64,000 bases of DNA from an uncultured Alphaproteobacteria bacterium. GTDB taxonomy: Bacteria; Pseudomonadota; Alphaproteobacteria; RF32; CAG-239. The stretch covers positions 24,573-88,572 of the forward strand of contig CALXTD010000002.1 in the NCBI GenBank assembly GCA_944391315.1. The letters are read 5' to 3'. The stretch's first letter is position 1; each line of letters opens with the position of its first letter. The notes below the pieces were generated by a model. That model saw only the letters and a list, made by a program, of their open reading frames with translations. It searched no databases and was not told where the DNA came from. The position numbers and the translations under genes are program-made. Below, one piece after another: positions 9,200-24,102 of this stretch.

Positions 9200-9531
9200 C
9201 GTTATAAATCCTTTCTTTTTAAGTCATTATCTATTATATATTCTCTTTTTTTTAATTTTTGAATAAAAGCATGAAAAAATTTTGTTTAGTATTTTCAATA
9301 ATTTATCGCGTCATCCTACAAAATTTTTGGTTTTTTTTGATTTTTTTACACATTGATTCTTCAATATTTACGGAGGGTTTGAGCGTTTTAATTTGTCGGG
9401 ACATTTTTGGAGAAGACAAAAATGCTTTTTTTTGTTATATCTTGTTATATGCTGGACGAAGTTGTGTTCGGCAGTCTTGTGGTAAATACCTTGCGGTGAT
9501 TTGTATTCCATATAATATTCATTACTGTTCC

Positions 9532-9564
9532 GGAGAGAAGTTTTTGCTTCTCTCCTTTTTCTTT
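9532..9564 (+). terminator. intrinsic terminator immediately upstream of terS
   Basis: GGAGAGAAG(9532-9540) TTTTTG CTTCTCTCC(9547-9555) followed by TTTTTCTTT. terS ATG is at 9581. Confidence 0.6.
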
Positions 9565-9580
9565 GAGGTTTGTTGGTGTT

Positions 9581-9958
9581 ATGTCTGATTTAACTTTTCG
9601 ACAATTACGATTTGTGGAGGAATTTATCAAGTGTGGTGTCGGTGCTCAAGCGGCTCGGCTTGCCGGTTATTCCTGTCCGCAAAAAGCTGCCGCCCGCCTT
9701 AAGAAAAATCCTAAGATAAAATTAAAGCTCGATAGTCTGCGACAAAAAGCCATGCAGCGGGCTCAACTCTCGTTGGAAAAGCTGCTGGAAGAACTGGAAG
9801 AGGCGCGGCAGGTGGCCATTGATAAAGAAATGGCTGCCGCGGCTGTCTCTGCTTCAATGGGGAAGGCCAAGCTTCTCGGTTTGGATAAGCCCCAAAAAGA
9901 ACATGAGGAAGAAAAAGAAAGTGATATTCCTCAGGTGTTGGTTAAATTTGTTGAATAA
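9581..9958 (+). CDS. terminase small subunit
   Basis: LTFRQLRFVEEFIKCGVGAQAARLAGYS..AAARLKKNPKI resembles the Terminase_2-type small subunit HTH. It lies directly upstream of terL. Confidence 0.8.
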   Translation: MSDLTFRQLRFVEEFIKCGVGAQAARLAGYSCPQKAAARLKKNPKIKLKLDSLRQKAMQRAQLSLEKLLEELEEARQVAIDKEMAAAAVSASMGKAKLLGLDKPQKEHEEEKESDIPQVLVKFVE

Positions 9959-9970
9959 AGCGGAGGTCTT

Positions 9971-11293
9971 GTGAAACAGGTTGAAGTTCAAATTCCTAAA
10001 ATTTTTGCGCCGCTTTTGACATCTGATTATCGTAACAAATTTTTTTATGGCGGGCGTGCCGGCGGAAAGTCTTATGCCTTTGCCGATAGTCTTCTTCTTT
10101 TGGGGCGGCAAAAAAGGCTGTTTATTGCTTGTCTGCGTGAGATTCAAAACAGCATGAAAGATTCGGTCTATAAGCTTTTATGTGACCGAATCTCTTTTTA
10201 TGGGCTTGATGATTATGAGATTTTGGATTCTAAAATCGAAAACAAAATAACCGGTTCGCGCTTTGTTTTTAAAGGTTTGCGGAATCAGGACAGTCAAAAA
10301 ATAAAATCACTTGAAGGCGTTGATATCGCTTGGATTGAAGAGGCTCAGGCCATTACCCGCAAAAGCTGGGAAATCTTGGAGCCGACTATTCGTAAAGATG
10401 GGTCGCAAATTTGGATTTCCATGAACAGAGAAGAGGAAAACGACCCTTTGTGGGTTTTGGTGGCGGCGAATCCTGATGCACGCACTTTGGTGGTGAAGGT
10501 TAATTATTACGATAATCCGTTTTGTCCTGAAGAAATAAGGCTGCAAGCCGAAAAATGCAAACAGTCTTCTCCCGAAGATTATGAGCATATTTGGCTCGGT
10601 GAGCCAAGGCGGCAGGGAAATACCAAGCTGATTTCGGCCACAGATGTGTGTCACGCTTTTCAACAACAGCTGCCGATGCCGTCTTCGCCTTTGATTATCG
10701 GGGTTGATGTAGCGCGCTTTGGTGATGACAAAACCGTGTTTTGTTTTCGGCGGGGGCGAAGTTGTTTTCGAATAGAAAGTTTTTCGGGGCTTGATGTGGT
10801 GGAAGTGGCTAATCAGGCCACTTTTTTTATCAGAGAAAATCAGCCCAAGCGGATGTTTGTGGATATTGGCGGCGTGGGAGCCGGTGTTTATGACATTCTT
10901 AAAGACAGAGGCTTAGGCGAGGTGGTGAAAGCCGTTAATTTTGGCGAACGCGCCTTGCTTTCCGAGCGTTATGCCAACCGGCGTGCCGAGATGTGGGACA
11001 ATCTGCATGATTGGCTTATCTCCGAGCCGCAGGTGGCTTTGTTTTATGATGAGGATTTGCTGACCGATCTTTGTTGCGTCAACAAAAAATATGACCGCCG
11101 CGGGCGCTTGCTGCTTGAAGAAAAAGATGAAATCAAAAAGAGGCTCGGGCGTTCGCCGGACAAGGCTGATGCGCTTGCTTTGACTTTTGCCGAGCGGTTT
11201 TTTGATAATCTGGCGCCGCAAATGTATCGCCCCAAGCAGCTCTTATGGGAAGATGTGTTTAACTCGTATAATCAAGGAGATGACAAATGGTAG
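9971..11293 (+). CDS. terminase large subunit (PBSX/Terminase_3-like)
   Basis: Walker A in FYGGRAGGKSYAFAD, 440 aa, GTG start. The position is canonical. Confidence 0.88.
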   Translation: MKQVEVQIPKIFAPLLTSDYRNKFFYGGRAGGKSYAFADSLLLLGRQKRLFIACLREIQNSMKDSVYKLLCDRISFYGLDDYEILDSKIENKITGSRFVFKGLRNQDSQKIKSLEGVDIAWIEEAQAITRKSWEILEPTIRKDGSQIWISMNREEENDPLWVLVAANPDARTLVVKVNYYDNPFCPEEIRLQAEKCKQSSPEDYEHIWLGEPRRQGNTKLISATDVCHAFQQQLPMPSSPLIIGVDVARFGDDKTVFCFRRGRSCFRIESFSGLDVVEVANQATFFIRENQPKRMFVDIGGVGAGVYDILKDRGLGEVVKAVNFGERALLSERYANRRAEMWDNLHDWLISEPQVALFYDEDLLTDLCCVNKKYDRRGRLLLEEKDEIKKRLGRSPDKADALALTFAERFFDNLAPQMYRPKQLLWEDVFNSYNQGDDKW

Positions 11294-11556
11294 AAGCTTG
11301 TCCGAACTTTGTGCCGGTGACCGATCGTTTGGTCTTAAAACTTGAACCAAAAAATTCGGAAACCGCCGGCGGACTTATCCTTGCCGATGATACTTATGCC
11401 GTGCGCAATGTGGCAACGGTTTTGGCAATCGGTCCCGAGGTTAAAGCCGATGTGGCCGTTGGGGACAGAGTGATGTTTCACTGTTTTGACGAGCTGCCGG
11501 TTTGGGACGGCGATATTGTTGTGATACGTGATAAAAGCTTGTTGTTTAAATTTTAG
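11287..11556 (+). CDS. GroES/Cpn10-like co-chaperonin encoded in the head module
   Basis: 89 aa. V.DR.VLKLEPKNSETAGGLILADD....R.ATVLAIGP..K....VGDRVMF matches the GroES pattern (mobile loop ..T.GG(I/L).(L/I)...). It overlaps the terL stop. Confidence 0.7.
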   Translation: MVEACPNFVPVTDRLVLKLEPKNSETAGGLILADDTYAVRNVATVLAIGPEVKADVAVGDRVMFHCFDELPVWDGDIVVIRDKSLLFKF

Positions 11557-11567
11557 GAGTTTTCTGA

Positions 11568-13466
11568 ATGTCAAAAAAAGTTTTTGAGTCAAAGCCGGCT
11601 CTTTGGGCAGAAAAAATCAGTGCGGCTGAGGCGGCTTATCAATCTTATTATAACTTAATAGATGAAACGCGCGAGAGCTATAAACTGGCCTCGTCAGGGC
11701 TGAGTTCGTCGCTTAAGGTCGGAAGTGCGTGCAGCATTTTTTGGTCGGGAATCGAGACGCAAAAGCCGTTTCTTTATTTCAAACAGCCAAAGCCCTGTGT
11801 CGATAGGATTAATAAAAATTATTCTCCGGCGGAGGCCTTGGCCTGTCGCCTGATGGAGCGATTATTGGCTTGGGATTTGTCGCGGTTTGATTTTGATTCG
11901 GTGGCAAAATATGCGCGAAATGATTTTTTAATTTCGGGTTGCGGAATTTTGTGGGAAAGCTATAAGCCAGAATTTACAACCGTGCTTGATGAGCAAAATC
12001 ATGAGGTTTTGGTTAAAACCGGTGAAAAAGTCGTGTCTGAATATGTGGATCCGAAAAACTTTTTGGCCGATACCGACCATGTCGGAATATGGGAAGATGT
12101 GACTTGGGTGGCTCGCAAGCATTTTCTCAGCGCCAAGGCTTTGCTTGAGGCTTTTGCTTCTTCTCCGGCGTTGTTGACGGTGCCGGTTGCCGATGATGAT
12201 TGTTATAAAGAATATTGTGTTTATGAAATTTGGGACAAAGAAGACAAGAAGGTTCGTTGGTGGTGCAAGGATTTTCCCGATGCCTTTTTGCGTGAGGTTG
12301 ATGATCCGCTCGGGTTGGAAAACTTTTTCCCTTGTCCGAAACCGGTGTTTGCGACACAATCCAATGATTCAATCATTCCGGTTCCGGATTTTTGTATGAT
12401 TAAAGCCGATTTGGAAGAGTTGTCCGGTGTTATTGATCGAATGAGTTTGACCATGAAGGCGCTCAAAGTGACCGGTGCTTATGACAGCTCTTTTCCTCAT
12501 TTGGCGGATATTTTGAACAAAGATGTTTCTCTCGTGGCGGTGCAAGATTTTGATAAGCTTAAGTCGGCCGGTGGGCTGAAAGGTATTGTCGACTTTATGC
12601 CGGTTGAGCAATATATTTCTGCTTTGCAGGCTTTGGCTTTGCGCCGTGATGATATTATTGAGAATATTTATCGTATTACCGGAATTTCGGACATTATGCG
12701 AGGGACTTCCTCTCAGTCCGAAACAGCAACCGCGGTTAAGCAAAAAACAAATTTCGGAACACTGCGCAACCAAGACCGCCAAAATGATATGCAGCGGTTT
12801 TTGTGTGACTTATATGCGTTAAAAGCCGAAATTATTTGTGAGCAGTTTGCGACTGAACATGTTCTTTCCTTTGTATCTCCTGAAGAAAAAAATGATGCTC
12901 CTCTGGTTCAGGCCGTGATTGCTTTGCTGAAAACCGATAAAATGCGCAACATGGTGCTTTCGATTGAGACCGATGCCGTGTTTGACCAAGAGTCCGAGGC
13001 TTCTCAGATTAGTGCGGCGGTTAAGTCGGTTTCTCAGCTTATTCAAGATGCTTTTCAGATTGTGTCGGTACAGCCGGCTTTGTTGCCGCTTTATCAACTT
13101 ATGGCTGAGGCTTTGACTGCTTCTATGCCGAAATCGCGCTCCTTTGAATCGGTGTTGTCAAAGGTGTTTGATGATGTTGCACGCGATTTGGCTCAACCGG
13201 AGGCGTCTTCTTCCAATTCATCCTCTCCGGTGTCAAAGCCTCAGGCAGCCTCTCCTCAACAGCCGAGTTTTTCCGATCAGCTAAAACTTATGGAGCTGCG
13301 CAATACTTATGAGCTTGAAAAAGAGCAAAATGCTCTTAAAGCCAGAGAACTTGCCCTTAAGGAAAAATCTGAGAATGTGAAGCTTATTTTGGCGGATAAA
13401 GATTTTCGTGCGGAGGCGCTTAAACTGCAAGCCGAAGCGCAAAAATCAGCTCCGTCCAAGGCATGA
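11568..13466 (+). CDS. portal protein (positional and size-based call)
   Basis: 632 aa, immediately after the terminase genes, with an acidic/coiled C-terminal tail. No motif-level confirmation. Confidence 0.6.
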   Translation: MSKKVFESKPALWAEKISAAEAAYQSYYNLIDETRESYKLASSGLSSSLKVGSACSIFWSGIETQKPFLYFKQPKPCVDRINKNYSPAEALACRLMERLLAWDLSRFDFDSVAKYARNDFLISGCGILWESYKPEFTTVLDEQNHEVLVKTGEKVVSEYVDPKNFLADTDHVGIWEDVTWVARKHFLSAKALLEAFASSPALLTVPVADDDCYKEYCVYEIWDKEDKKVRWWCKDFPDAFLREVDDPLGLENFFPCPKPVFATQSNDSIIPVPDFCMIKADLEELSGVIDRMSLTMKALKVTGAYDSSFPHLADILNKDVSLVAVQDFDKLKSAGGLKGIVDFMPVEQYISALQALALRRDDIIENIYRITGISDIMRGTSSQSETATAVKQKTNFGTLRNQDRQNDMQRFLCDLYALKAEIICEQFATEHVLSFVSPEEKNDAPLVQAVIALLKTDKMRNMVLSIETDAVFDQESEASQISAAVKSVSQLIQDAFQIVSVQPALLPLYQLMAEALTASMPKSRSFESVLSKVFDDVARDLAQPEASSSNSSSPVSKPQAASPQQPSFSDQLKLMELRNTYELEKEQNALKARELALKEKSENVKLILADKDFRAEALKLQAEAQKSAPSKA

Positions 13467-13481
13467 GCCTAAGGAGGAAAT

Positions 13482-13712
13482 ATGGCTCATTTTTCAAGAG
13501 AGTGGAGCGAAGATTTGTTATTGCCCGATGGGGCTTATGCGTCTTCGGTTCATGACATTGAACGCTACCTGCGCCGGAATAATTTGGCAATGGCCAGCGA
13601 TTATTCGGACGACTTTCGGAAGTCTGTCCGCTATCAACAAGAAAAAAAGCTGCGAGATGAAAATTTTGCAGCTTTTTTGCAACAGTATAAGAGGTTAATT
13701 TGGAATGAATAA
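13482..13712 (+). CDS. hypothetical phage protein
   Basis: A 76-aa ORF with an AGGAGG RBS, lying between the portal and scaffold genes. Confidence 0.5.
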   Translation: MAHFSREWSEDLLLPDGAYASSVHDIERYLRRNNLAMASDYSDDFRKSVRYQQEKKLRDENFAAFLQQYKRLIWNE

Positions 13713-14580
13713 AACTGAAACACGAAAAATTATTGAACAGGAGCTTGAAAAAGCTACTAGTCCTTCAAACAGCGACATTCAGCCCAACGAAGAAGCTCTG
13801 TTGGTTGTGCCGGCCGAAGAAGAAAAAACTTTTTCGGAGCCGCCGGTCGGCCTTGAGGCTGAGCTTGCTGAGGATTTTGTCCTGCTGCCCTTAAAGTGGC
13901 GCAAGTTTTTGTGCGAAAAAAATGCTGAAACCGAAGACAAAATTTCTGCTTTATCGGCTCAAGTCGAGCGATTGAAGTGGGTTGATGATTTTGTTCAGGC
14001 TCATGCCGAGCGCATTAACAAATATGGGCTTTCTTCTCCTCAGATGTGGTTGGAATATCTGGCTAAGGTTGAGGATTTGCTGGAAGAAAATCCGTCTCAA
14101 GGCGTGCGCTTTTTAGCAGAGGCTTATGGGGTGGCTTTTGCGCCGGCCTCTCAGCCGGTGGCTTCTTTACAGTCAAAAGTGGCTGCGCTTGAAGCTCAGT
14201 ATCAACAGCTGAAATCGCAGGTTGATGCTAAAGAACGTCAGATGTTTCGATCTTTGTTTGATCGCTTTATGGGTGAGAAAAACGAAGACGGTTCTCCCAA
14301 GCATAAATATTTTTATAAAGTGCGGCCGATTATGGCGGCGCTCCTGAGTCATAATCTCGCCGGAAATTATGAAGACGCTTATGCTCAGGCTTTGTGGCTT
14401 AGTCCCGAGGTTCGCCAAGAATTAATCGAGGCTCAGCTCAGTGATGCTCTCAAGAAAAAAGCCGCTGATGCTCAAAAGGCTCAGCAGGCCGCTTTTGAGG
14501 CAAAAGGTAGGGCGCTTCGTCCGGCTGAAGACCAGCTGACGACACGCCAAATCTTGGAACGTGTTATTAATGAAAACTAA
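13705..14580 (+). CDS. scaffolding protein (candidate)
   Basis: 291 aa, acidic, rich in A/E/Q/L and helical-looking. It lies directly upstream of the capsid gene. Confidence 0.55.
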   Translation: MNKTETRKIIEQELEKATSPSNSDIQPNEEALLVVPAEEEKTFSEPPVGLEAELAEDFVLLPLKWRKFLCEKNAETEDKISALSAQVERLKWVDDFVQAHAERINKYGLSSPQMWLEYLAKVEDLLEENPSQGVRFLAEAYGVAFAPASQPVASLQSKVAALEAQYQQLKSQVDAKERQMFRSLFDRFMGEKNEDGSPKHKYFYKVRPIMAALLSHNLAGNYEDAYAQALWLSPEVRQELIEAQLSDALKKKAADAQKAQQAAFEAKGRALRPAEDQLTTRQILERVINEN

Positions 14581-14598
14581 ACTTTCGTAAAGGATTTT

Positions 14599-15567
14599 AT
14601 GATGGCTAACTCTAATTATAATGACGCACTTACAACTTCTCTTGCTCATCGCAGTAAGCAACTTGCTGATAATGTCAGCAAAAATAATGCTTTGCTTAAA
14701 CGTTTGCAGGAAAAAGGAAATATTCGCGAAATCTCCGGCGGTTCTTCTATTTTGGAAGAGCTGGAATATGGCGAAGGCGATATGATTTGGTATAGTGGTT
14801 ATGATACCATTTCTTATACCAACAAGCAGCTCTTTACCGCAGCTGAATATGCTTTGAAACTTTGTGCCGTTCCGGTTGCTATTTCCGGTGAAGACTTGCT
14901 TAAAAACTCCGGCAAAGAAAAAATTGTCGATCTCTTTGAAAAAAGAGTTGAAAATGCCATGAAAACCATGAGCAACCAGATGTCTAAGGCAATTTACAGC
15001 GATGGTACAGGGTCTTCCGGTAAAGAAATCGGCGGATTGCGCTTCTTGGTAGCGGATTCTCCGGCTACCGGTACGGTCGGCGGTATTGATCGTGCGACTT
15101 CCGGCAATGAATTTTGGCGCAATAAAGCCACAACCGCCGAAGAAGCTTTGACTTCTGAAACCATCGGCAAAGCAATGCACAGTATGTATCATTCTTTGTG
15201 TCGTGGTACCGATAAGCCGGATTTAATCGTGACCGGTGATGATATGTATTCGCTTTATGAAGATTCTTTAACCCCGTTACAGCGTTATACCGATCCTAAA
15301 GCGGCTGACTGCGGTTTTGCTACATTGCGCTTCAAAGGTGCTGATGTGGTTTGTGATGGCGGACAAGGCGGCTTTTGTCCTGAAAAGCACATGTATTTTC
15401 TTAATACCGATTATCTCTATCTGCGTTCTCACAAAGACCGCAATATGAAAGTTATCGGTGGTGACAGAATGTCGGTCAACCAAGATGCTTTATACAAAAT
15501 CGTGGGTTGGGCCGGTAATCTGACCATGTCTAATGCTTCTTTACAGGGTGTTTTGATTAACGCATAG
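14599..15567 (+). CDS. major capsid protein (candidate)
   Basis: 322 aa, follows the scaffold gene, and is itself followed by a strong terminator, a typical high-expression arrangement. The call is positional. Confidence 0.65.
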   Translation: MMANSNYNDALTTSLAHRSKQLADNVSKNNALLKRLQEKGNIREISGGSSILEELEYGEGDMIWYSGYDTISYTNKQLFTAAEYALKLCAVPVAISGEDLLKNSGKEKIVDLFEKRVENAMKTMSNQMSKAIYSDGTGSSGKEIGGLRFLVADSPATGTVGGIDRATSGNEFWRNKATTAEEALTSETIGKAMHSMYHSLCRGTDKPDLIVTGDDMYSLYEDSLTPLQRYTDPKAADCGFATLRFKGADVVCDGGQGGFCPEKHMYFLNTDYLYLRSHKDRNMKVIGGDRMSVNQDALYKIVGWAGNLTMSNASLQGVLINA

Positions 15568-15576
15568 CGGCGTGGG

Positions 15577-15606
15577 GGCGGAGCGCTTTAATGCTCCGCC
15601 TTTTTT
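15577..15606 (+). terminator. terminator after the capsid gene
   Basis: GGCGGAGC(15577-15584)/GCTCCGCC(15593-15600) followed by TTTTTT. Confidence 0.75.
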
Positions 15607-15652
15607 GATGCCTTAGGAGTTCTTTTTATTTAATTTTTCGGGAGTTATTTCT

Positions 15653-16210
15653 ATGGATATGGATTTTGATATGTTTCAGCAGTTGTTGGACAGTGCTAAA
15701 AATAAGTCTGATAATACGGTGGCCGCGCGTTTTTATGATCGTTTGATAAAATCGGACAAGCTTGATGAAAACGGTTTGCCCGTGTTTGATACGGTTTGTT
15801 TTGTGGAAATCAGAATGCGCGATTGTCACGATGTGTTTGACCAGCCTGCCGATGCTGATAAAATTCAACGCTTTCCGACCGAATATAACCGCTATTTGCT
15901 GGCGAAAAAGCAAGTCGAAAAAGGAGCTCCTTTGGATCAATTTGCTTTTCTGACGGCCGCAGAAATCGAAACGCTTAAATTTCGTGGTATTTTTACGGTT
16001 GAGGCTTTGGCTGAGCTTGACGAGGAAAAAGCGCGGCTTATCGGTGTTTTATCCGAGCATAAGGCTGCAAAACTTTTTTTGCAGCAGGCAAAAGGGCACA
16101 AAGCTTTAATCGAAGCACAAAAACGCGAAGAGCGTTATCTGGCGGAAATTGATTTTCTTAAAAGCCAAATTGAAAAATTGCGCCGTTTGAATAATCGCGC
16201 AAAAAAATAA
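15653..16210 (+). CDS. hypothetical phage structural-module protein
   Basis: A 185-aa ORF with a coiled-coil C-terminus. Confidence 0.5.
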   Translation: MDMDFDMFQQLLDSAKNKSDNTVAARFYDRLIKSDKLDENGLPVFDTVCFVEIRMRDCHDVFDQPADADKIQRFPTEYNRYLLAKKQVEKGAPLDQFAFLTAAEIETLKFRGIFTVEALAELDEEKARLIGVLSEHKAAKLFLQQAKGHKALIEAQKREERYLAEIDFLKSQIEKLRRLNNRAKK

Positions 16211-16234
16211 CTTTTTTATTTTTTCGGAGGTGTT

Positions 16235-16957
16235 ATGGCGACTATTTTGCAGATTTGTCAGGAAGCGGCCAGTTTGTTGGCGACGCAAGCGCCGCAGGGG
16301 CTTTTTGATTCAAACTCTCAGCAAGAGGCTATTTTTTTGAGTATTGCAAAGTCTACGCTGAACAGTCTTCAGCGTTATGGCAACTGGCAAGAGCTGACCA
16401 AAGAAGGTGAGCTTAGAACACAGCCGTCCAGACTGGTTTATTATATTCAGGACTTTTGCCCTGATTTCTATTGTTTGCTGAACAATACGGTTTATGTGAA
16501 AGATCATTCGGAAAAAGTTATCGGTGCGCTTTCGCCCGAGCAATATATGCGTGAGCGTTATTTTTCTTTTTCTGATATCGGCATAAAGTTCAAAATTCAG
16601 CAGGGGCGTTTTGTGTTTTTAACTGAGCCGCCCGCTGGTCTTAAAATCGTGTTTAATTATCGTTCGGCAAATGTTTGTTATGATCCGGAGCTTGAGCTTT
16701 ATGGTAATCCGGAAAAAACAGAAATTACCAAAAATACCGATGTGCCGCTTTTTGATCCTTATTTGGTAAAGCTCGGCATTATTTGGCGCTGGTATAAACG
16801 CAACGGTATGCCTTATGAAGAAGAGTTTAACGAGTATCAAACCGAAGTGAAAAAAGCTTTTGCTTCAGGTTTGGCAACCAAGGATATTGCTTTGGCAGAA
16901 AATTGTCCGAAGGTGCTTAATGAGGGGGTGATTGTTTATGCAACGTCGAAAAGTTAA
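16235..16957 (+). CDS. hypothetical phage protein (head-tail adaptor position)
   Basis: A 240-aa ORF preceded by a GGAGG RBS. The call is positional only. Confidence 0.45.
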   Translation: MATILQICQEAASLLATQAPQGLFDSNSQQEAIFLSIAKSTLNSLQRYGNWQELTKEGELRTQPSRLVYYIQDFCPDFYCLLNNTVYVKDHSEKVIGALSPEQYMRERYFSFSDIGIKFKIQQGRFVFLTEPPAGLKIVFNYRSANVCYDPELELYGNPEKTEITKNTDVPLFDPYLVKLGIIWRWYKRNGMPYEEEFNEYQTEVKKAFASGLATKDIALAENCPKVLNEGVIVYATSKS

Positions 16958-18500
16958 TCGTCAAAATCGTTCCTTAAACTATACGCTGCCTTGTCCTATC
17001 GGTGGGTTAAATATGCGTGACAGCTTAGGCCAGATGAAGGAAAGCGACGCTATTGTTATGGATAATTATTTTCCGGGAGAGACCAAGGTTTCTTTGCGCA
17101 AAGGGTATGTGCGCTATGTGATTACCGGAAAGCCGGTTCATACCTTGGTAGAGCATAAGGCCGAAAGCGGATTAAACCGTTTTTTTGCTTTTTGCGATAA
17201 TGAGCTGTGGGATATTACTTCTAAATCTTCTCCTGAAAAATTAGCGGATAATTTTACTAATGACAAGTGGCAGACGGTGCAATTTAAAAATCGTTTGTTT
17301 GCCGTTAACGGTGCCGATGCGCCTCAAACTTATGTGATTGAGGAAAATGGCGAAGGCGTTTGGAAAAATGCTGAATTTACCGGTGACGGTCTTATTCCGG
17401 CGTCTTTGGTAAATGTCACTTCTTCCAAACAGCGTTTGTGGTTTGTGGAAAAAAACAGCATGAAAGCTTGGTATTCCGAAAATGCGGCGGAAGTGCAAGG
17501 AAAATTGCTGTGTTTTGATATGTCGACGATAGCGCGTGATGGCGGGGCTTTGGTGGCGATTGCTTCTTGGACCCAAGATGGCGGGATGGGCATAGATGAC
17601 TTGACCGTTTTTATTACCTCGGAAGGTGAGGCTTTGATTTACAGCGGGTCTAATCCTAATTCTGCCGAAGATTGGGAGCTGCGCGGGGTTTATCGGGTCG
17701 GGCGTCCAATTGGGTATCGTTGCATATTGCAATATCAGGGGGATGTGGTGCTGGTTTCGGTTGACGGTTATTTGCCGCTGTCAAAGGCTTTGCCGCTGAA
17801 CAGTGCCAATAACTCTCAGATTTCTTTTTCGGATAAAATAAGAGGGTTGGTTTTGGAGCGGACGGCTTTGTCTCAGGACAAATTCGGGTGGCAGCCGTTT
17901 ATTTATAATCGTGGCGGCTATGCTTTGTTTAATGTTCCGGTTAATCAGAGCTTTGAGCAGCATGTGGTTAATCTTAATACCGGTGCTTGGTGTCGCTTTA
18001 CAAATATTCCGGCGCTTTGTTGGGGGCTTTATCAGAATCGGGCTTATTTCGGAATGCATGACGGAATTATGCTGTTTGATGAAAGTTATGCTGATGAGCT
18101 TAATCCTATCGAGGGGCATATTGAGCAGGCTTATTCTTCTCTCGGTATAGCCGCTATGAAAAAGCTGCAACTGCTTAATCCGCGTACAAAGGCCTTTAAT
18201 CCCTTTGCTTTAACGCTTTATGCCAATGCTGATTTTGCTGATGATTCTCAGCCTTTTGTGGAGAATATCGGCAATGATTCAACAGATAGGACTTTTTGGA
18301 ACGAGGCCAAATGGAGTTCTTTGTCAGTGCCTTCGGGGACCAAATGGGCGGTGCTCAAAGGGGTTATTCGCAGTCAATGGATAGGGACTTCGGCAACGGG
18401 GCTGAAATTCAGTCTTGTATTCAAAACAAAGACCAAAGGAAATGCTATTGAGTGGTATGGAACAGACTGTCGTTTTGAACAAGGTTCCGGTTTTCTTTGA
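16932..18500 (+). CDS. large virion structural protein (tail hub/adaptor candidate)
   Basis: 522 aa, the largest post-capsid ORF. The call is positional only. Confidence 0.45.
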   Translation: MFMQRRKVNRQNRSLNYTLPCPIGGLNMRDSLGQMKESDAIVMDNYFPGETKVSLRKGYVRYVITGKPVHTLVEHKAESGLNRFFAFCDNELWDITSKSSPEKLADNFTNDKWQTVQFKNRLFAVNGADAPQTYVIEENGEGVWKNAEFTGDGLIPASLVNVTSSKQRLWFVEKNSMKAWYSENAAEVQGKLLCFDMSTIARDGGALVAIASWTQDGGMGIDDLTVFITSEGEALIYSGSNPNSAEDWELRGVYRVGRPIGYRCILQYQGDVVLVSVDGYLPLSKALPLNSANNSQISFSDKIRGLVLERTALSQDKFGWQPFIYNRGGYALFNVPVNQSFEQHVVNLNTGAWCRFTNIPALCWGLYQNRAYFGMHDGIMLFDESYADELNPIEGHIEQAYSSLGIAAMKKLQLLNPRTKAFNPFALTLYANADFADDSQPFVENIGNDSTDRTFWNEAKWSSLSVPSGTKWAVLKGVIRSQWIGTSATGLKFSLVFKTKTKGNAIEWYGTDCRFEQGSGFL

Positions 18501-18519
18501 TATTTTTGGGGAGGCATAT

Positions 18520-18933
18520 ATGGAAATTATTCAAGATTCCTGCGGGCTGATTGCCCATTGGGTTTGTGCTTCTTTGGGCGAAAGTGATGTTTGGGTCGGC
18601 GAAAATTATACCATTGGTTTTGTGGAAGGCGGAAAGCTTGTCGGCGGGCTTATTTTTAATAATTATCGCCCCAATCATGATGTTTGGTGGACAATCTATA
18701 CCAATGACAAGCGTTGGTGCTGTCGAAAAGTTTTACGCTTTATCTTTGATATGGCGTTTAATGTGTTGAAATGTCGAAGAATTAGCCTTTTGGTGAGCGT
18801 TTCAAACAAAGCCTGTCTGAATTTGGTAAAAAAGCTGGGCTTTAAAATTGAGGGGCGTCTTCGTGCTTTTCGTGAAAACGGCGAGGACGCTTTTGTTCTT
18901 TCTATCTTAAATTCTGAATCTTTATGGAGTTAA
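18520..18933 (+). CDS. GNAT-family N-acetyltransferase embedded in the tail module
   Basis: Start ATG 18520 is preceded by GGGGAGG. The C-terminal half (RRISLLVSVSNKACLNLVKKLGFKIEGRLR) resembles GNAT motifs A/B. Confidence 0.6.
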   Translation: MEIIQDSCGLIAHWVCASLGESDVWVGENYTIGFVEGGKLVGGLIFNNYRPNHDVWWTIYTNDKRWCCRKVLRFIFDMAFNVLKCRRISLLVSVSNKACLNLVKKLGFKIEGRLRAFRENGEDAFVLSILNSESLWS

Positions 18934-18937
18934 TGTT

Positions 18938-19621
18938 ATGAGTAAATCTATCGGAAAAATTTTGGGTGCAGGTGGGGCCAGTACTTCTTATAATCAAGCA
19001 GAAAATGATGCGCTTAATTATTTGAAAAATATTGATACTTCTCTGGCGGATAAAACTTATGATAATTTTGCGCAATATGGTTATGATCTTAGTCAGACGC
19101 TTAATAATCGTCCGGATTATATTTATTCGGTCGATGGATCTGATGAGGCGCGTCAGCGTATGGAAAATGCGGTTTATAATTCTTATGTTGACAAGCTGAC
19201 GCCGCAATTTGAACAGCAGACTTCGGATTTGCAAACACGTTTGGCCAACCAAGGATTGTCGGTTGGGTCAGAGGCTTATCAACGTGCGATGTCTGATTTG
19301 CAAGATTCTCAAAATTCGGCGCTGAATCAGGCTGCTTATACGTCTGTTAATGCAGGCCAAAACTCGTTTTCAAATTCTTTGCGCGATGCGATTTCTTCTG
19401 CCGGATTTACCAATTCTGCTCGTCAGCTGCCGATTAATGAAATTTATTCTTTGATGAAAAATTCGCCCAGTGCTTATGAGAATAATATGAATATTTATTC
19501 GATTCAAAATCAGGCCGAAAATCGTATTAACCAGAACAAGGCCTATAATTCTCAGGCGCAATTTAATGCCGGTAATCAGTTGTTGGGAAATGCTGCCGGT
19601 GTCTTGTTTGGTTTGTTTTAA
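18938..19621 (+). CDS. hypothetical virion protein (N/Q/S-rich)
   Basis: 227 aa, located in the tail module. Confidence 0.45.
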   Translation: MSKSIGKILGAGGASTSYNQAENDALNYLKNIDTSLADKTYDNFAQYGYDLSQTLNNRPDYIYSVDGSDEARQRMENAVYNSYVDKLTPQFEQQTSDLQTRLANQGLSVGSEAYQRAMSDLQDSQNSALNQAAYTSVNAGQNSFSNSLRDAISSAGFTNSARQLPINEIYSLMKNSPSAYENNMNIYSIQNQAENRINQNKAYNSQAQFNAGNQLLGNAAGVLFGLF

Positions 19622-19641
19622 TTCTTTTCGGGAGATGTATT

Positions 19642-20424
19642 ATGCCGTTTGACAGTCAAGGAATTTTTTCACGAATTCATAACTGGGAAGATGATCGTCA
19701 GAATAATATTGAAATCGTGACTGATCATCATGATGAGGAAGATGATAATTTTGCATCCGGTCTTTCGCAATGTTTGTTGCGTGATGGGCGCGCGGCGATG
19801 GAAGCTAATTTTAATGCCGGAAATTTTCAGATTAAAAATCTTAAGGCCGGTTCTATCAGCTCAGATGCGGTGAATTTGATCCAACTGAATGATCAGATTG
19901 CTTCTTTGAAAAAGACTTTGCTGGCCAGTATTAACCAAGGTTTTAAAATCGGTGATATTAAGGCTTCGGTTAAAAATGCTAATCATGACAACTGGTTTTT
20001 GTGCAATGGTCAGGCTATCAGTCGTGTAACTTATGCTGATTTGTTTGCCCTTATCGGAACTAAGTTTGGAACGGGTGACGGAACATCAACTTTTAATCTG
20101 CCGGATTATAGAGGCAAGTTCTTGCGTGGTTTGGGAGGAGATTCCGCCAGTGATATTTATAAAACCCAAGCCGAAGGTTTGCCTAATATTGCAGGGCGTA
20201 TTTGGACAGCAAGAAACAGTACTATTAATACATCGTTTGCTAATGGTGCTTTTTATATGGACACACAAAATGCTAATGGTAACGGAACGGGAGGTGATAT
20301 GCCAACAGCTTATACTGTTTATATGGATGCATCACGTAGTTCTAAAATTTATGGTGCATCATCTCACGTTACGCCGATAAACCAAGCGGTGAACTACTTT
20401 ATTAAAGTTAAAGAGGAGGCTTAA
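19642..20424 (+). CDS. tail fibre protein with phage tail-collar domain
   Basis: CNGQAISRVTYADLFALIGTKFGTGDGTSTFNLPDYRGKFLRG is the classic tail-collar motif. Confidence 0.8.
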   Translation: MPFDSQGIFSRIHNWEDDRQNNIEIVTDHHDEEDDNFASGLSQCLLRDGRAAMEANFNAGNFQIKNLKAGSISSDAVNLIQLNDQIASLKKTLLASINQGFKIGDIKASVKNANHDNWFLCNGQAISRVTYADLFALIGTKFGTGDGTSTFNLPDYRGKFLRGLGGDSASDIYKTQAEGLPNIAGRIWTARNSTINTSFANGAFYMDTQNANGNGTGGDMPTAYTVYMDASRSSKIYGASSHVTPINQAVNYFIKVKEEA

Positions 20425-20426
20425 AT

Positions 20427-20789
20427 ATGACAGGTCGTATTTTACCTTATGCAAATATTATTGAGGTTCGACAGGGCGATAGTTTTACAATCAAGCTTAA
20501 AATTCATAAAGGGGAGAAAGATTTTGATTTGACTGGTGCAAGAGTTAATATGCAAGTGCGCAATATAGAAGGCAATGATTTGAAATTTGATTTGTCGGCA
20601 GAGCCGATTGATACTCAAAAAGGAGAGTTTGCGCTTTTGCTTTCGCCTGTGGAAACAAGTATTGATGTTGGGTCTTATAAAACGGATATTCAACTTTCGA
20701 CCGCAGACGGGCAGATTAACACAATATTTCCTGCCGATGTTAATAAGGTGGCAATTTTTAGAATTACGGAGCAGGTGACTCATGAGTGA
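20427..20789 (+). CDS. hypothetical phage protein
   Basis: A 120-aa ORF between two fibre genes. Confidence 0.45.
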   Translation: MTGRILPYANIIEVRQGDSFTIKLKIHKGEKDFDLTGARVNMQVRNIEGNDLKFDLSAEPIDTQKGEFALLLSPVETSIDVGSYKTDIQLSTADGQINTIFPADVNKVAIFRITEQVTHE

Positions 20790-21909
20790 TGTTATTAATG
20801 TTAATATTTCTGATGCTGCGGTTGAAATTTGTTGTCAAGATGGGGCTGTTTTTGATGTTCTATGGCAAGATGAGGTTAATCTCAATCTGGACTTAAATTT
20901 GATGTATATAAAGTCGGGGCAGGCTGAGATACAATCTTATGTTAATAATGTTTCTAAGCCGGAGATTGATGCTTATCTTAATACACAGGCAGAGCCGATA
21001 GTTGCAGATGTTTCTTCACGGATTGTGACGCCGCTGATTGATAACTATGTAACGGAAACAAGCAAGCCTGAGCTTGATGCTTTTGTGGAAGCTAAAAAGC
21101 CGGAACTTCAGGCTTATGTCTCTTCTGCTCAGGAGCAAGCAAATTTGGCAACGGAACAAGCTGAAACAGCTGTTGCGGCAAAAAATGAGTCGGCTTCTTT
21201 GGCAGAGAATGCGCAGGCTTCAGCCTCGGCGGCGGAACAAAGCTCTTTATCTGCAGCTGCGGCACAAAATAATGCAGCTGCCAGTGCAGCTCAGGCTCAA
21301 GAATTTGCAGAGCAAGCATCAAGTGCTTCGGGCGGAAAGGCTAATGTTGATTTAGATAATTTATCTTCTGTTGGAATAGCTAAATTTAATGCTAAGCAAA
21401 ACACGATAACCGGTGCGGCAACAACGATTGCTTCTGCAAATTTGACAGCAAATAGGGCTCTGATTTCAAATGGCAGTGGAAAAGTTGCCGTTTCGGCTGT
21501 TACTAGCACTGAACTAGGTTATTTGGACGGTGTGACAAGTGCTATTCAAACACAGTTGAACTCAAAGCAGGCTGCCGGATCTTATGCAAACACTAGTTTG
21601 AGCAATATCTCTACGAGTGGATTATCCAGCAAATATTTTTATATTGGAAAATTGCTTGTTCAGTGGGGAATTGCAGGCAGAACTCAACAAGGCGGAACTG
21701 TGTGGGTGGGATTTCCGAAGCCATTTGCCAATACAGCTTATGGTGTCTCTCTGGTTGGAAAACCTGATGATTCAGAAAATTGGACCAATAGGGTAATGAC
21801 AGTTAATAAAACTTTATCAACAACCGGTTTTACTATCACTAATAATGGTTGGTCAGACGCTTATAATGGCATGACTGCATTGTGGATTGCCGTCGGACAA
21901 GGAGTTTAA
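20782..21909 (+). CDS. tail fibre protein (Ala/Gln-rich coiled stalk plus C-terminal globular domain)
   Basis: 375 aa with a long repetitive stretch AQ..A..SA.AA..S...A, typical of fibre shafts. Confidence 0.6.
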   Translation: MSDVINVNISDAAVEICCQDGAVFDVLWQDEVNLNLDLNLMYIKSGQAEIQSYVNNVSKPEIDAYLNTQAEPIVADVSSRIVTPLIDNYVTETSKPELDAFVEAKKPELQAYVSSAQEQANLATEQAETAVAAKNESASLAENAQASASAAEQSSLSAAAAQNNAAASAAQAQEFAEQASSASGGKANVDLDNLSSVGIAKFNAKQNTITGAATTIASANLTANRALISNGSGKVAVSAVTSTELGYLDGVTSAIQTQLNSKQAAGSYANTSLSNISTSGLSSKYFYIGKLLVQWGIAGRTQQGGTVWVGFPKPFANTAYGVSLVGKPDDSENWTNRVMTVNKTLSTTGFTITNNGWSDAYNGMTALWIAVGQGV

Positions 21910-21913
21910 CAAA

Positions 21914-22390
21914 ATGCAAATAAATGATATTTTTACAATAGAACAATACGATGAAGCTTATGCCTTTATTTGTAAAAATCAAGGAACTAAGATTGTTGAT
22001 CTTGGTAATGGACAATATAGTATTGTTGAAATACCTCAGCCAACACTAGATGAACTCAAAGCCTTAAAGCGAGCTGAAATAAATCAAGCTCGTGATAACG
22101 CTGAACAAGGCGGCTTTGAGTATCTTGGAAAAACTTTTGACAGCGACCAAGTGTCCTGTATAAGAATGTCCTCAGCAGCACAGGCGATGCAGTATGCTGA
22201 TGATACCGTCACGATAACTTGGACAACGCAGGACAACAGCACAATAGACTTGAACAAATCTCAGCTCATGGGACTTGTCGTGGCTTTGGCTCAATGGTCT
22301 AATACTTGCCATCAAAAGGCAACGGCTCTCAAAGCACAGATTGATGCCTGTGACAGCAAAGAAGCACTGGATAAAGTTAAGTGGGAGTAA
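21914..22390 (+). CDS. DUF4376-like tail fibre assembly/chaperone-type protein
   Basis: LKALKRAEINQARDNAEQGGFEYLGKTFDSDQVS..ALKAQIDAC resembles DUF4376 proteins found downstream of fibre genes. Confidence 0.55.
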   Translation: MQINDIFTIEQYDEAYAFICKNQGTKIVDLGNGQYSIVEIPQPTLDELKALKRAEINQARDNAEQGGFEYLGKTFDSDQVSCIRMSSAAQAMQYADDTVTITWTTQDNSTIDLNKSQLMGLVVALAQWSNTCHQKATALKAQIDACDSKEALDKVKWE

Positions 22391-22630
22391 ATGCTTATGG
22401 ATTGGGAAGCTGTCGGCATTATCTTATCCTTATGCGGTGTGTTGTTTAATTTTATCCGTTTTGGAAAATGGCAAGGCATTATTGAAACCAAAGTTGCAGC
22501 TTTGGAACGTGATTCTTCAATTACGCTCACAAAGTTTGATGTGCTTAATAAAGCTTTGCGTGAAAATAATGAGATTTTAACCGAACTAAAAGTCAAAATA
22601 GAGCTTATGCTCGAAAAAAAAGGAAGGTAA
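22391..22630 (+). CDS. small membrane protein (holin candidate)
   Basis: 79 aa with one N-terminal TM segment (AVGIILSLCGVLFNFI) and a coiled C-terminus. It is the first gene of the lysis block. Confidence 0.4.
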   Translation: MLMDWEAVGIILSLCGVLFNFIRFGKWQGIIETKVAALERDSSITLTKFDVLNKALRENNEILTELKVKIELMLEKKGR

Positions 22631-22633
22631 AAC

Positions 22634-23041
22634 ATGGTGGCACGTGGTATTCGAAATAATAACCCCGGAAACATAAGACATGGGGAAAAGTGGGAAGGGC
22701 TATCAGATAAGCAAACTGATAGCTCTTTTTGTATCTTTGTTTCTCCGGAATATGGAATCAGGGCGCTGGCAAAGGTGTTGCTGACTTATTATAAAAAATA
22801 TCAGCTGAATACGGTCAAAAAAATTATCAGCCGTTATGCGCCACCTAATGAAAATGAGACCGAATCTTATATTAAATCGGTGGCTAATCAACTTGGTGTT
22901 GCATCCGATGAGGTGATTGATCTGTCGTCTGTTGCGGTTCTTGCGGTTTTATTACGTGCCATTATTCGACATGAAAATGGTGAGCAGCCTTATTCTGATG
23001 AACAAATATTAAAAGGTATTCATTTGGCGGGAGTAAAATAA
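22634..23041 (+). CDS. putative cell-wall hydrolase/endolysin (RNNNPGNIR-motif family)
   Basis: GIRNNNPGNIRHGEKWEG is a motif I associate with a phage and proteobacterial family of unproven activity. The endolysin role is inferred from its position in the lysis cassette. Confidence 0.4.
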   Translation: MVARGIRNNNPGNIRHGEKWEGLSDKQTDSSFCIFVSPEYGIRALAKVLLTYYKKYQLNTVKKIISRYAPPNENETESYIKSVANQLGVASDEVIDLSSVAVLAVLLRAIIRHENGEQPYSDEQILKGIHLAGVK

Positions 23042-23632
23042 ATGATTTGGCAGATTGTATTTAGTATTTTAATTGTGGCGATAAGCTCTTTTTTGTGGCG
23101 TGTCCGTGGTGGACTCGATATTTGGAAAGGGGGCAATGTTCCGATGAATAAAATTTGGTATGCCGTGGCTTTCGCGATTTATGCCGGATTTTATTTTGGT
23201 TTTTCAGTTCAAAATATCCTTATAGCCTTTATTGCGTGTTATACGTCTTATCAGCTTTACGGCTGGGGAAAATATATCGGAGCTTTAACTTCCGGTAATC
23301 TTGATAAGCAAGAAAAGGAATGTGAGCTTATTGATGATTTGCTTGATAATTGCCACGTTACTTTCAAAGGTAAAGTTGTTTATTTGTGGGACTATCCAAA
23401 ACTATACGGATTTATCGGAACGTGCCTTACCGGATTTATTATCACTTTCTTGTGGGGATTATTCCTTGCCGATTTAATAGTTATGATTTCAGGTATTGGA
23501 ATGGGGTTGTGTTATTATTTGGGGGCTTTTTTAAGTCAATATAAAGATGACGGTAAATCCGGCTGGAACTGGGGAGAATGGATTTTTGGTGCTTATATCG
23601 GTGCGATTTTTGCAAGGAGTCTGTTATGGTAA
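23042..23632 (+). CDS. polytopic membrane protein, unknown function
   Basis: 196 aa with about 6 hydrophobic segments, located in the lysis block. Confidence 0.5.
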   Translation: MIWQIVFSILIVAISSFLWRVRGGLDIWKGGNVPMNKIWYAVAFAIYAGFYFGFSVQNILIAFIACYTSYQLYGWGKYIGALTSGNLDKQEKECELIDDLLDNCHVTFKGKVVYLWDYPKLYGFIGTCLTGFIITFLWGLFLADLIVMISGIGMGLCYYLGAFLSQYKDDGKSGWNWGEWIFGAYIGAIFARSLLW

Positions 23633-23763
23633 AAAAACTAACAAAGCACAAATGGAAGATTATTTGCTTGGCGGCAATCGTGGTGGCGATTGTCGCTTTT
23701 TTTAAGCCCGAATGTGCTGAAAATGTGGCTCGGGCTTTTTTGCTCATTATAGCGGGGGTGTGA
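23626..23763 (+). CDS. small single-TM protein (holin/antiholin candidate)
   Basis: MVKKLTKHKWKIICLAAIVVAIVAFF.., with an AAGGAG RBS at 23613-23618. Confidence 0.4.
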   Translation: MVKKLTKHKWKIICLAAIVVAIVAFFKPECAENVARAFLLIIAGV

Positions 23764-23966
23764 TGAAATATGCGTTGGTTGTTGTTCTTTTTATTTCTTC
23801 TTTGCTTGGAGCTTATTTTCTTGGTCGCAGTCATAGCGAGCTAAAAATTGTTAAAGAACAAGTCGAGGTGGTGAAATATGTGGAAAAGAAAAAAGCGGCA
23901 ATTTATTCTCAGCCTAATGCTTCTCGTGGTGAGCTGCTTGGCCTCATGCGCGATGGAATCTTGTAA
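23760..23966 (+). CDS. i-spanin-like protein (Rz-like)
   Basis: 68 aa with an N-terminal TM segment and a charged helical periplasmic part. It precedes and overlaps a lipoprotein ORF in another frame. Confidence 0.5.
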   Translation: MMKYALVVVLFISSLLGAYFLGRSHSELKIVKEQVEVVKYVEKKKAAIYSQPNASRGELLGLMRDGIL

Positions 23967-24102
23967 TCTCTCTACAGTTTATCCGGTGGGCGGAAAAGAG
24001 GTTGCAAAAGAGCTTGAGAATCTGCCTTATCAAGGTTATGAACATTTTTGGGAGTGGTTGGCGCGGATTAATAAACTGCGTCAGGAACTCTCATCTTTTT
24101 GA
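23878..24102 (+). CDS. o-spanin-like lipoprotein (Rz1-like), overlapping the i-spanin gene
   Basis: It has the lipobox LVVSC/LASC after a basic N-terminus (MWKRKKRQFILSLMLLVVSCLASC). Its start lies inside 23760..23966 in a different frame. Confidence 0.5.
   Translation: MWKRKKRQFILSLMLLVVSCLASCAMESCNLSTVYPVGGKEVAKELENLPYQGYEHFWEWLARINKLRQELSSF

Follow-up and report, generated by a model that had tools for sequence, protein, structure and literature searches.

Phage structural genes lodged among the housekeeping genes of a bacterium raise the question as to whether they are the debris of a prophage or a particle-making locus that the host has kept. The case considered here is a cluster of ~14.5 kb, set among housekeeping genes in a 64-kb stretch of DNA from an uncultured Alphaproteobacteria bacterium (contig CALXTD010000002.1 of assembly GCA_944391315.1); this whole stretch of 64,000 nucleotides (nt) is referred to as the window. 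We lean, with slightly better than even confidence, to the view that the cluster is a fixed, vertically inherited remnant of a temperate podovirus of the Mx8/pCB2047 type, kept as a maker of DNA particles and thus a candidate gene transfer agent (GTA) or in-situ-packaging transducer. That it is selectively maintained and vertically inherited is probable; that it works as a GTA is a further step, which judging from the sequences we put a little short of an even chance. It is best read, with its many relatives, as belonging to a large and hitherto undescribed family of podovirus-derived particle loci that gut Alphaproteobacteria have domesticated, and a literature search for such loci in these bacteria found nothing.

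The cluster (9563-24102) comprises 21 genes running from terS to the spanins, identified from open reading frames (ORFs) together with Pfam and PHROGs matches. An earlier note on this DNA had counted 22 ORFs, which does not hold, and had placed them all on the + strand, which does; its order of genes from terS to the spanin-like genes is borne out by Pfam and PHROGs, with a GNAT acetyltransferase that had gone unmentioned. It had also seen no recombinase, CI/Cro-type switch, replication gene or tape measure in or beside the block and no convincing att duplication, and we agree: the ~8 kb flanking the cluster on each side hold no integrase, CI/Cro pair, replication gene or tape measure, none of these is present among the larger ORFs scanned farther out in the 64-kb window, the cluster itself has no tape measure, tail tube or sheath gene, and a search for att-like flanking direct repeats around it returned only chance-level short repeats. 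What lies near the cluster in the window is what would be expected of a GTA under the criteria of PMC9662315 and Tamarit et al. 2018, a phage-derived structural cluster without integration, lysogeny or replication genes, and the window does not hold the contiguous integrase, repressor switch and early/replication region of an intact temperate Mx8/pCB2047-type prophage. The G+C content of the cluster is similar to that of its surroundings (~42% for the window). Its genes are as follows.

9563-9958, + strand: TerS, small terminase subunit (Pfam Terminase_2, 6e-11; phrog_51, 5.5e-17)
9971-11293, + strand: TerL, large terminase subunit (Terminase_3, 3e-34; phrog_3717, 4e-55)
11287-11556, + strand: GroES/Cpn10-like co-chaperonin (Cpn10, 3.8e-10; phrog_3188)
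11568-13466, + strand: portal protein (phrog_12082, 1.9e-107)
13482-13712, + strand: small head-module protein of 76 amino acids (aa), kept in 63 loci, without a family match
13705-14580, + strand: scaffolding protein, assigned by its position between the portal and capsid genes, as in phage pCB2047-C
14599-15567, + strand: major capsid protein, HK97 fold class (phrog_9953, 2e-107; weak SU10_MCP match)
15653-16210, + strand: 185-aa virion protein, candidate head-tail adaptor from its position (phrog_20268; 73 loci)
16235-16957, + strand: 240-aa tail protein, candidate adaptor (phrog_6013 'tail protein', 2.6e-28; 78 loci)
16932-18500, + strand: podovirus tail hub/nozzle, P22 gp10-like, 522 aa (Foldseek, 1e-13 to 1e-10)
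18520-18933, + strand: GNAT acetyltransferase within the virion module (Acetyltransf_1; phrog_4470, 1.4e-25)
18938-19621, + strand: 227-aa virion structural protein, candidate tail plug/needle (phrog_6121, 1.3e-16)
19642-20424, + strand: tail fibre with Collar domain and YadA-like stalk (Pfam Collar, 4.5e-20)
20427-20789, + strand: BppU_N-like small fibre/baseplate-type protein (Pfam BppU_N, 1.8e-5; phrog_1084)
20782-21909, + strand: second fibre, with a gp53-like C-terminal domain (Pfam Gp53-like_C, 4e-7)
21887-22390, + strand: DUF4376 fibre-associated protein (DUF4376, 1.9e-25; phrog_2837 'tail protein')
22391-22630, + strand: putative holin-like small membrane protein with one N-terminal hydrophobic helix (26 loci)
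22634-23041, + strand: 135-aa transglycosylase-like wall hydrolase, probable endolysin (phrog_873, 2.6e-62)
23042-23632, + strand: multi-pass membrane protein of the lysis cassette, hydrophobic in sequence, without a family match
23760-23966, + strand: i-spanin-like protein with an N-terminal transmembrane segment
23878-24102, + strand: o-spanin-like lipoprotein, its signal peptide carrying a Cys lipobox-like motif

Relatives were collected with the 522-aa hub protein. The protein collection holds 638 of them, the named ones being listed as "MAG: Alphaproteobacteria bacterium" (MAG, metagenome-assembled genome) from gut or rumen; a scan of one genome per species finds hub relatives in at least 148 species-representative genomes, and all such counts are lower bounds. 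Loci carrying relatives of the hub gene are labelled L001 and so on, and unless stated otherwise the statistics below refer to the best 80 of these genomes. These closest 80 are uncultured gut/rumen Alphaproteobacteria, such as "Azospirillum sp. 51_20" and UMGS63, in keeping with the alphaproteobacterial host that had been proposed for the window. The hub family is a distinct one: after clustering at 50% only two representatives are at least 45% identical to the window's protein, and the rest of 2,992 homologues are at or below 42%. Four loci carry labels of other phyla (L061, L067, L069 and L074, filed under Holdemanella biformis, Eubacteriales or Bacteroidaceae), which probably reflects mis-binning or contamination. 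The MAG MGBC133411 has two diverged copies of the cluster on separate contigs (L015 and L050); the second may be genuine, or the bin may be mixed.

The genes of these loci are intact and under selection. TerL is full length and free of stop codons in 50/50 loci where it is on the contig, the capsid protein is full length in 63 of 64, and the hub in all 80, with a stop codon in one; truncation was judged by stop codons within high-scoring segment pairs, the truncation flags of the ORF caller being artefacts of overlapping starts. In comparison with the close relative L002 the ratio of nonsynonymous to synonymous substitution rates (dN/dS) is 0.02-0.07 for the head/tail core (0.067 for TerL, 0.027 for the capsid protein; the 240-aa tail protein has 0.017) and 0.04-0.09 for flanking host genes, with nearly equal pooled dS (0.24 vs 0.26). 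In 13 other species pairs drawn from different sublineages the pooled core dN/dS is 0.04-0.13. This is purifying selection without pseudogenisation, as is seen in GTAs, and the comparison across genomes that the earlier note had proposed thus returns a core dN/dS of 0.02-0.13 as well as the same site within the window's sublineage. Divergence of the cluster also keeps pace with that of its chromosomal neighbours: identity of the hub is correlated with that of the adjacent host gene, with Spearman coefficients of 0.82 for an M23 peptidase (78 pairs; host 56-99%, hub 55-97%), 0.77 for an ABC transporter and 0.93 for GlyA.

The order of modules is permuted in several lineages (L052, L056, L041, L062-L079), always on one strand; in one arrangement portal, fibres and lysis genes come before terL, which is followed by the stretch from capsid to the 227-aa gene. 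Shuffling that keeps to one strand is unusual for functional tailed phages. In L052 and L056 a tRNA-Lys gene lies inside the cluster.

The cluster is flanked upstream by genes for a nitroreductase and a BOF protein and downstream by tRNA-Cys, tRNA-Asn, rpiB, glyA and regulators, with AlaRS, PheST, Sua5 and PepA genes farther out in the window. The tRNA genes form its host boundary:

24251-24407, + strand: tRNA-Cys(GCA) and tRNA-Asn(GTT), by ARAGORN and Rfam

The tRNA-Cys gene starts at 24251, 148 nt after the last stop codon of the cluster, close to the 150 nt given previously. A promoter of its own, also proposed, is plausible by eye (TTGACC ... TATATA, 24161-24190), with no call from a consensus scan. 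The cluster is found directly 5' of tRNA-Cys, tRNA-Asn, (gene 3, see below), rpiB and glyA in the window, L001, L002, L003, L005, L007 and L209, and L074 has the same neighbourhood with the tRNAs inverted. In other sublineages the host neighbours are an M23 peptidase (13-14 loci), an MsbA-like ABC transporter (8 loci), UvrD, a TPR-methyltransferase and a nearby tRNA-Asp. A shared tRNA-Cys/rpiB/glyA site and co-divergence, the marks of vertical inheritance, thus hold within sublineages, and the site differs between them. Within a species the position is stable, one hub sequence having identical neighbours in 24 of 24 contigs. Taken together, intactness, selection, position, co-divergence, stability, distinctness and gene order point to a locus long resident under selection at the level of the host, rather than to one decaying neutrally.

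We note some further features of this site. The window's sublineage, which has the cluster upstream of the tRNA-Cys/tRNA-Asn pair, is alone in having this pair co-oriented with rpiB-glyA. In five other lineages (L074, L210, L211, L215, L216) the pair is inverted beside rpiB; the cluster-free rpiB-glyA neighbourhoods that still hold the pair have it inverted. L214 was considered as an empty site in a close relative and rejected, as its flank is rearranged and both tRNAs are also gone, which is not a clean excision. Gene 3 (window 3414-4748; L214 6650-8461 and ~20249) belongs to a multi-copy family of 444-603 aa with no Pfam match, and recombination between its copies may be how L214 came to have a rearranged left flank of rpiB, without cluster and tRNAs. 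Because GlyA identity saturates at 76-80% across genera, occupancy of the site by GlyA identity band is uninformative. Between gene 3 and the cluster, on the - strand (4841-7951), lie genes for a ParB_N protein and a PAPS-reductase/DUF3440 protein, an IbrB/IbrA-like pair, and for an SNF2 helicase; because gene 3 is much nearer the cluster in L005 and L006, the three genes have the look of an inserted island. Proteins of the IbrAB type have elsewhere been annotated as co-activators of prophage genes.

What kind of particle would the cluster encode? The hub gives the clearest indication. Its top Foldseek matches are the tail proteins of Pan3, P22 (gp10), Pa223, VP1, SU10 (nozzle), Pam1 and T7, obtained with an AlphaFold model of mean pLDDT (predicted local distance difference test) 60, in which core residues 60-280 exceed 85; the PHROG label 'amidase' on this protein looks like a misnomer. 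Because the best matches of this 522-aa protein are podovirus tail hubs and nozzles, the particle is predicted from the model to be short-tailed. Among cultured phages the closest are podoviruses with genomes of 38-53 kb: the Myxococcus phages Mx8 and Mx9, ppBjS10J-1, Stenotrophomonas BUCT555, the Sulfitobacter phages pCB2047-A, pCB2047-C and NYA-2014a, and Brucella phages of the Tb type. The capsid protein is 45-47% identical to those of Mx8, Mx9 and the Bradyrhizobium phage ppBjS10J-1, and the hub 26-30% identical to the hubs of phages of this type.

The temperate phage pCB2047-C has the virion gene order of the cluster and, beyond it, integrase and repressor genes as well as an early region. 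Its GNAT gene is followed by a 329-aa virion gene, and this by the genes of two large virion proteins, of 643 and 670 aa. In many relatives in IMG/VR the 227-aa gene is similarly followed by two extra genes, coding for ~310-330 and ~580-750 aa; from their position these are candidate ejection proteins. Integrases are present in the IMG/VR relatives L096 and L109 (tyrosine recombinases) and L116 (a large serine recombinase), and L082/L206 have an XRE-type repressor, many small early ORFs, three DNA methylases and extra virion genes. None of the 80 genome loci has an integrase within 10 kb on either side, and none has the extra virion genes, save for a partial match to one of them in L050. In a neighbour-joining tree of the capsid, the 240-aa protein and the hub, most phage-like IMG/VR loci form an outgroup to the chromosomal loci. 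One deposited sequence, GenBank MT835830.1 (L081), is a 17-kb scaffold from Mexican human faeces labelled 'UNVERIFIED: Bacteriophage sp.'; it carries the same cluster, with a capsid protein 74% identical to the window's and neither terminal repeats nor mobility genes, and is probably a host locus deposited as a phage.

The region in front of terS has three features that bear on regulation.

9394-9403, no strand assigned: palindrome TGTCGGGACA, a candidate regulator-binding site, present as a single exact copy in the 64-kb window
9430-9460, + strand: AT-rich promoter-like block, -10-like TATATG/TATAAT, which aligns in the window, L002, L005, L006 and L007
9532-9555, + strand: leader hairpin of an intrinsic terminator, with a 10-bp stem (free energy -15.5 kcal/mol) followed by the T-run TTTTTCTTT

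In the window, L002, L003, L005, L006 and L007 the palindrome is conserved, with 1-4 copies each at 520-890 nt before terL; among the other loci, variants of the form TGTCnnGACA were seen upstream only in L016 and L069, at differing distances. The block at 9430-9460 may act as a promoter, and a sigma-70 consensus scan gave no call there. The leader terminator ends 8 nt before terS, and 17 of the 20 loci examined have hairpins of unrelated sequence at the equivalent place, an arrangement which by analogy with lambdoid late operons and with the Bartonella GTA (BaGTA) suggests antitermination control. In about 20 loci the cluster is preceded by a divergent LexA/CI-like S24 repressor (F0), often with a 106-aa gene (F5), and the same loci carry a ~160-aa gene (F3 or F6) and a P22-gp3-type TerS before the cluster. 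From its position F3/F6 is a candidate late regulator or antiterminator; F3, F6, F5, F78 and the extra virion proteins have no Pfam, PHROGs or PDB sequence matches. In L132 and L133 host genes (AspRS, AnmK, AlgH-like, autotransporter) directly abut the module of repressor, F3 and terS, and the reduced form therefore keeps the switch without the mobility genes. The view that there is no lysogeny switch is thus correct for the 64 kb of the window but does not extend to its kin: as many sister lineages keep the adjacent S24 repressor with its small putative late regulator, the family as a whole is not switch-free.

Several observations weigh against reading the cluster as a fixed, vertically inherited remnant that makes DNA particles. 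In the tree L082 lies nested among the loci of the window's sublineage, and L096 and L089/L090 take basal places among the chromosomal loci; the clusters may thus have been in exchange with active phages or have descended from them recently. The nesting of L082 would mean either that phages took modules from resident clusters, as has been proposed for relatives of BaGTA and of RcGTA (PMC9662315), or that reduction occurred more than once, and because of it a single ancient domestication is not proven. Seven of the eight rpiB-glyA neighbourhoods sampled from other lineages are without the cluster, and several independent integrations followed by parallel decay are possible. No homologue of the S24 repressor or of F3, F5, F6 or F9 is present in the 64-kb window, and no regulator was found there. 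A T=7 head, moreover, could hold the whole 14.5-kb locus, which would break a strict definition of a GTA, by which the packaged pieces of essentially random host DNA are too short to hold every gene that particle production needs.

One rival is an ordinary defective prophage: a temperate podovirus would have inserted close to tRNA-Cys and then, with integrase and early region deleted, entered neutral decay, and the remnants in other species would stem from separate integrations by phages of one common family. In its favour, true prophages with integrases are known among the relatives, L082 falls inside the window's sublineage, sites differ between sublineages with most of those sampled at rpiB-glyA elsewhere being empty, and the locus adjoins tRNA genes, which are classical integration targets. 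Decay, however, predicts frameshifts and patchy loss, the former listed in the earlier note as a refutation of domestication, whereas the core genes are full length in virtually all 80 species with dN/dS of 0.02-0.13, the same reduced architecture recurs, divergence tracks the adjacent host genes down to ~56% identity, and the locus lies 5' of tRNA-Cys without an att repeat. Neutral decay is therefore an unlikely account, and of the two readings that had been left side by side, decaying prophage and domesticated particle, we favour domestication on the strength of intactness, dN/dS, co-divergence, the common site within the sublineage and the restriction of integrases to free phage relatives, with the differing sites and the place of L082 counting the other way. 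A domesticated particle need not transfer DNA, and could be a PBSX-like killing or lysis device or a vehicle for the release of contents, with packaging incidental. PBSX packages DNA yet kills (discussed in PMC12946183), particles lacking the two large virion proteins may not inject DNA, and fast diversification of fibres would be expected in the targeting of rival strains. Yet the conservation of TerS, TerL and portal matches that of the capsid protein, which would be needless if packaging were irrelevant. We also know of no killing mechanism for a short non-contractile tail, and consider such a role quite unlikely. Highly improbable, in our judgement, is a still-mobile satellite or helper-dependent mini-phage, excised and replicated by a helper and packaged in its own capsids as a unit of ~15-18 kb: the locus has no integrase, replication/primase gene or att repeats, the complete contigs of 15-18 kb have no terminal direct or inverted repeats, and the position is stable within species and co-diverges with the host flanks. 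Several IMG/VR contigs and MT835830.1 do span 15-18 kb with little beyond the cluster, and there are capsid-forming satellites of about this size (cited in 10.64898/2026.07.08.737213), but unlike these the cluster encodes its own tail and fibres; the integrase and replication/primase module of cf-PICI-type satellites are missing and a hub and fibres are present.

If the cluster is indeed kept as a maker of DNA particles, its workings might be as follows. A signal would let transcription from a promoter bearing TGTCGGGACA pass the terminator hairpin of the leader (9532-9555); in sister lineages the S24 LexA/CI-like repressor and the ~160-aa F3/F6 protein would make this control SOS-linked, and in the window's lineage the regulator would have to act in trans. 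The operon of ~14.5 kb would then be read through, portal, scaffold and capsid proteins would build proheads with the GroES-like helper, and TerS and TerL would fill them with DNA. For a locus incapable of excision and replication, the cargo would have to be host chromosome, with or without the locus itself, either as random fragments, as in a classical GTA, or as successive headfuls from a pac site in the locus, which would amount to in-situ lateral transduction. A P22-like short tail (adaptor, gp10-like hub and plug) and fibres would be added, holin, transglycosylase and spanins would lyse the producer, and the fast-diversifying fibres would bind related cells. Because the large virion genes are missing, delivery may stop at the periplasm and need ComEC/DprA-type functions of the recipient; delivery by BaGTA depends on recipient uptake functions (PMC5496983). 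A clade-wide family of podovirus-derived GTAs, cousin to BaGTA, in gut/rumen Alphaproteobacteria ('Azospirillum sp. 51_20'/UMGS63-type MAGs), switched by antitermination and SOS-linked in many lineages, with delivery through recipient uptake and fibres that track the recipients, is a tentative proposal that we would rate somewhat below even.

Individual genes of the cluster show different degrees of conservation and exchange. TerS has been swapped non-orthologously, being of the Terminase_2 type in the window (9563-9958) and of the P22 gp3 type (GP3_package) elsewhere (L132 9569-9973). The Cpn10-like gene was detected in 40 loci and is absent from pCB2047-C, the 76-aa gene has the position of a 75-aa gene in that phage, and the portal homologue of L213 has a faint P22_portal match. 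The scaffold-sized gene evolves fast, with ~31% identity across loci and no significant Pfam match. At the position of the GNAT gene pCB2047-C has an acyl-CoA N-acyltransferase; the mechanically called GNAT ORF begins at a TTG (18415) inside the hub gene, and because 37 loci have a stop codon in this extension the true start is the ATG at 18520. The 227-aa protein is 38% identical over 89 aa to SUBG_00009 of pCB2047-C.

The receptor-binding end and the lysis genes are the variable part. In comparison with L002 the fibre genes and the hydrolase have dN and dS far above those of core genes. The Collar fibre has raised dN, with dN/dS of 0.30-0.36 against L001 and L002, the second fibre is 73% identical to that of L002 (core genes, 97-100%), and the DUF4376 protein, present in only 4 loci, belongs to the variable part. 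This divergence suggests recombinational replacement or diversifying change at the receptor-binding end. A sister species, L209 (3716-5105), has two toxin-antitoxin pairs, MazE/Fic and RelB/YafQ, lodged between its fibre genes and its lysis genes, as has L003. The holin-like protein has no family match in Pfam or PHROGs. The phrog_873 match of the hydrolase covers only an internal lytic domain of large virion/tape-measure proteins, and the endolysin, too, has been swapped non-orthologously, with a GH24 lysozyme in 15 other loci in place of the 135-aa transglycosylase-like protein. A terminator-like hairpin (23670-23697) lies 3' of the multi-pass membrane protein gene, and the i- and o-spanin-like genes overlap in an Rz/Rz1-type arrangement that is kept in 43-46 loci. 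Elsewhere in the window, on the - strand (55485-55831), there is a two-piece (permuted) transfer-messenger RNA (tmRNA) of alpha type with the tag ANDNNVAPVAVAA, and no integrase-like gene was seen among the ORFs scanned beside it.

Only a handful of GTA families are known, and the route from prophage to GTA has been inferred largely from RcGTA and BaGTA. The loci described here offer a graded series, from integrase-bearing prophages with extra virion genes, through reduced loci with a repressor and late regulator, to the minimal locus of the window, in which the steps of domestication are directly comparable across more than 100 species. If our reading is true, the cluster would be a second GTA-like system of the mammalian gut after that of Faecalibacterium (FpGTA), in a poorly known uncultured clade, and the podovirus lineage behind BaGTA would extend beyond Bartonella. 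There is also a consequence for the interpretation of viromes, in that MT835830.1 and dozens of virus-labelled IMG/VR contigs carry the module, some of them probably being host loci, and a testable prediction follows for sequencing of virus-like particles (VLPs) from the gut.

How, then, does the cluster compare with known systems? RcGTA (Rhodogtaviriformidae) likewise belongs to alphaproteobacteria and is passed on vertically, as a head-tail cluster of ~15 kb that has no mobility genes; it has lost large DNA-ejection machinery, and its recipients take up DNA by competence-like functions. It is siphovirus-like, however, with a tape measure, tail tube and prohead protease, whereas in the window the tail is short and of P22 type, TerL is of another family and the cluster has a lysis cassette of its own in cis. 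Neither siphovirus tail genes nor RcGTA-like head genes are present, and the difference in type pointed out before stands, given the podovirus-type hub and the lack of a tape measure or tube gene. FpGTA, like the cluster, is compact, podovirus-like and a candidate GTA of a gut bacterium; it is an operon of ~10 kb, near-ubiquitous in the genus of its commensal host, and has been described as the first example both of a GTA-like element from the gut and of a podovirus-like one (PMC12946183). Its host is a Firmicute, and VLP long reads show 8-9 kb host fragments, whereas the cluster is known from its genes alone.

The phages pCB2047-C, Mx8/Mx9 and ppBjS10J-1 share with the cluster an order of terL, portal, small gene, scaffold, capsid and two small tail genes, continuing with a ~520-aa hub, GNAT, virion protein, fibres and lysis genes. 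They differ in having genomes of 40-53 kb with an integrase, repressor, early/replication genes and two large virion proteins, none of which the window has, and the GroES-like gene is an addition of the window relative to pCB2047-C/Mx8-type phages.

BaGTA (Bartogtaviriformidae) itself was the first guess for the identity of the cluster, from the ~42% G+C, the two-piece alpha tmRNA and a 14-kb cluster, and was rejected, as all close homologues are in gut/rumen MAGs; a search with TerL of pCB2047-C returned marine and soil relatives only and no Bartonella, and ten representatives of ~490 aa that were looked up include no Bartonella protein. The hosts differ, Bartonella in the one case and uncultured gut/rumen bacteria in the other, and so does the placing of the lysis genes, which in the cluster are contiguous with the structural genes. 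The 64-kb window has no run-off-replication (ROR) module or brr genes; the ROR of BaGTA lies tens of kb off from its own cluster. There are also likenesses. Both are structural clusters of ~14 kb (bgtA-K in BaGTA) without mobility genes in an alphaproteobacterial host, and when published descriptions are set side by side the gene sizes and order of BaGTA, with terL of 1344 bp, portal of 1863 bp, then genes of 840, 1119 and 1464 bp and a tail-collar fibre (PMC3610622 Table 2, PMC5496983), resemble those of the window. BaGTA particles are reported to be short-tailed or tailless (PMC9662315). Both have a leader terminator before the first structural gene; that of BaGTA is overridden by the antiterminator BrrG (bioRxiv 10.1101/2024.11.20.624540), and that of the window is structurally conserved, with no antiterminator found in the window. 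Homology between the two may be drawn indirectly, via the Sulfitobacter phages: TerL of BaGTA groups with those of pCB2047-C and NYA-2014a (PMC9662315), and these phages have the virion gene order of the cluster, with three of their proteins giving BLAST matches to it (TerL of the window is 33% identical to that of pCB2047-C over half its length). On the best reading, BaGTA is the closest known system and the cluster its evolutionary cousin.

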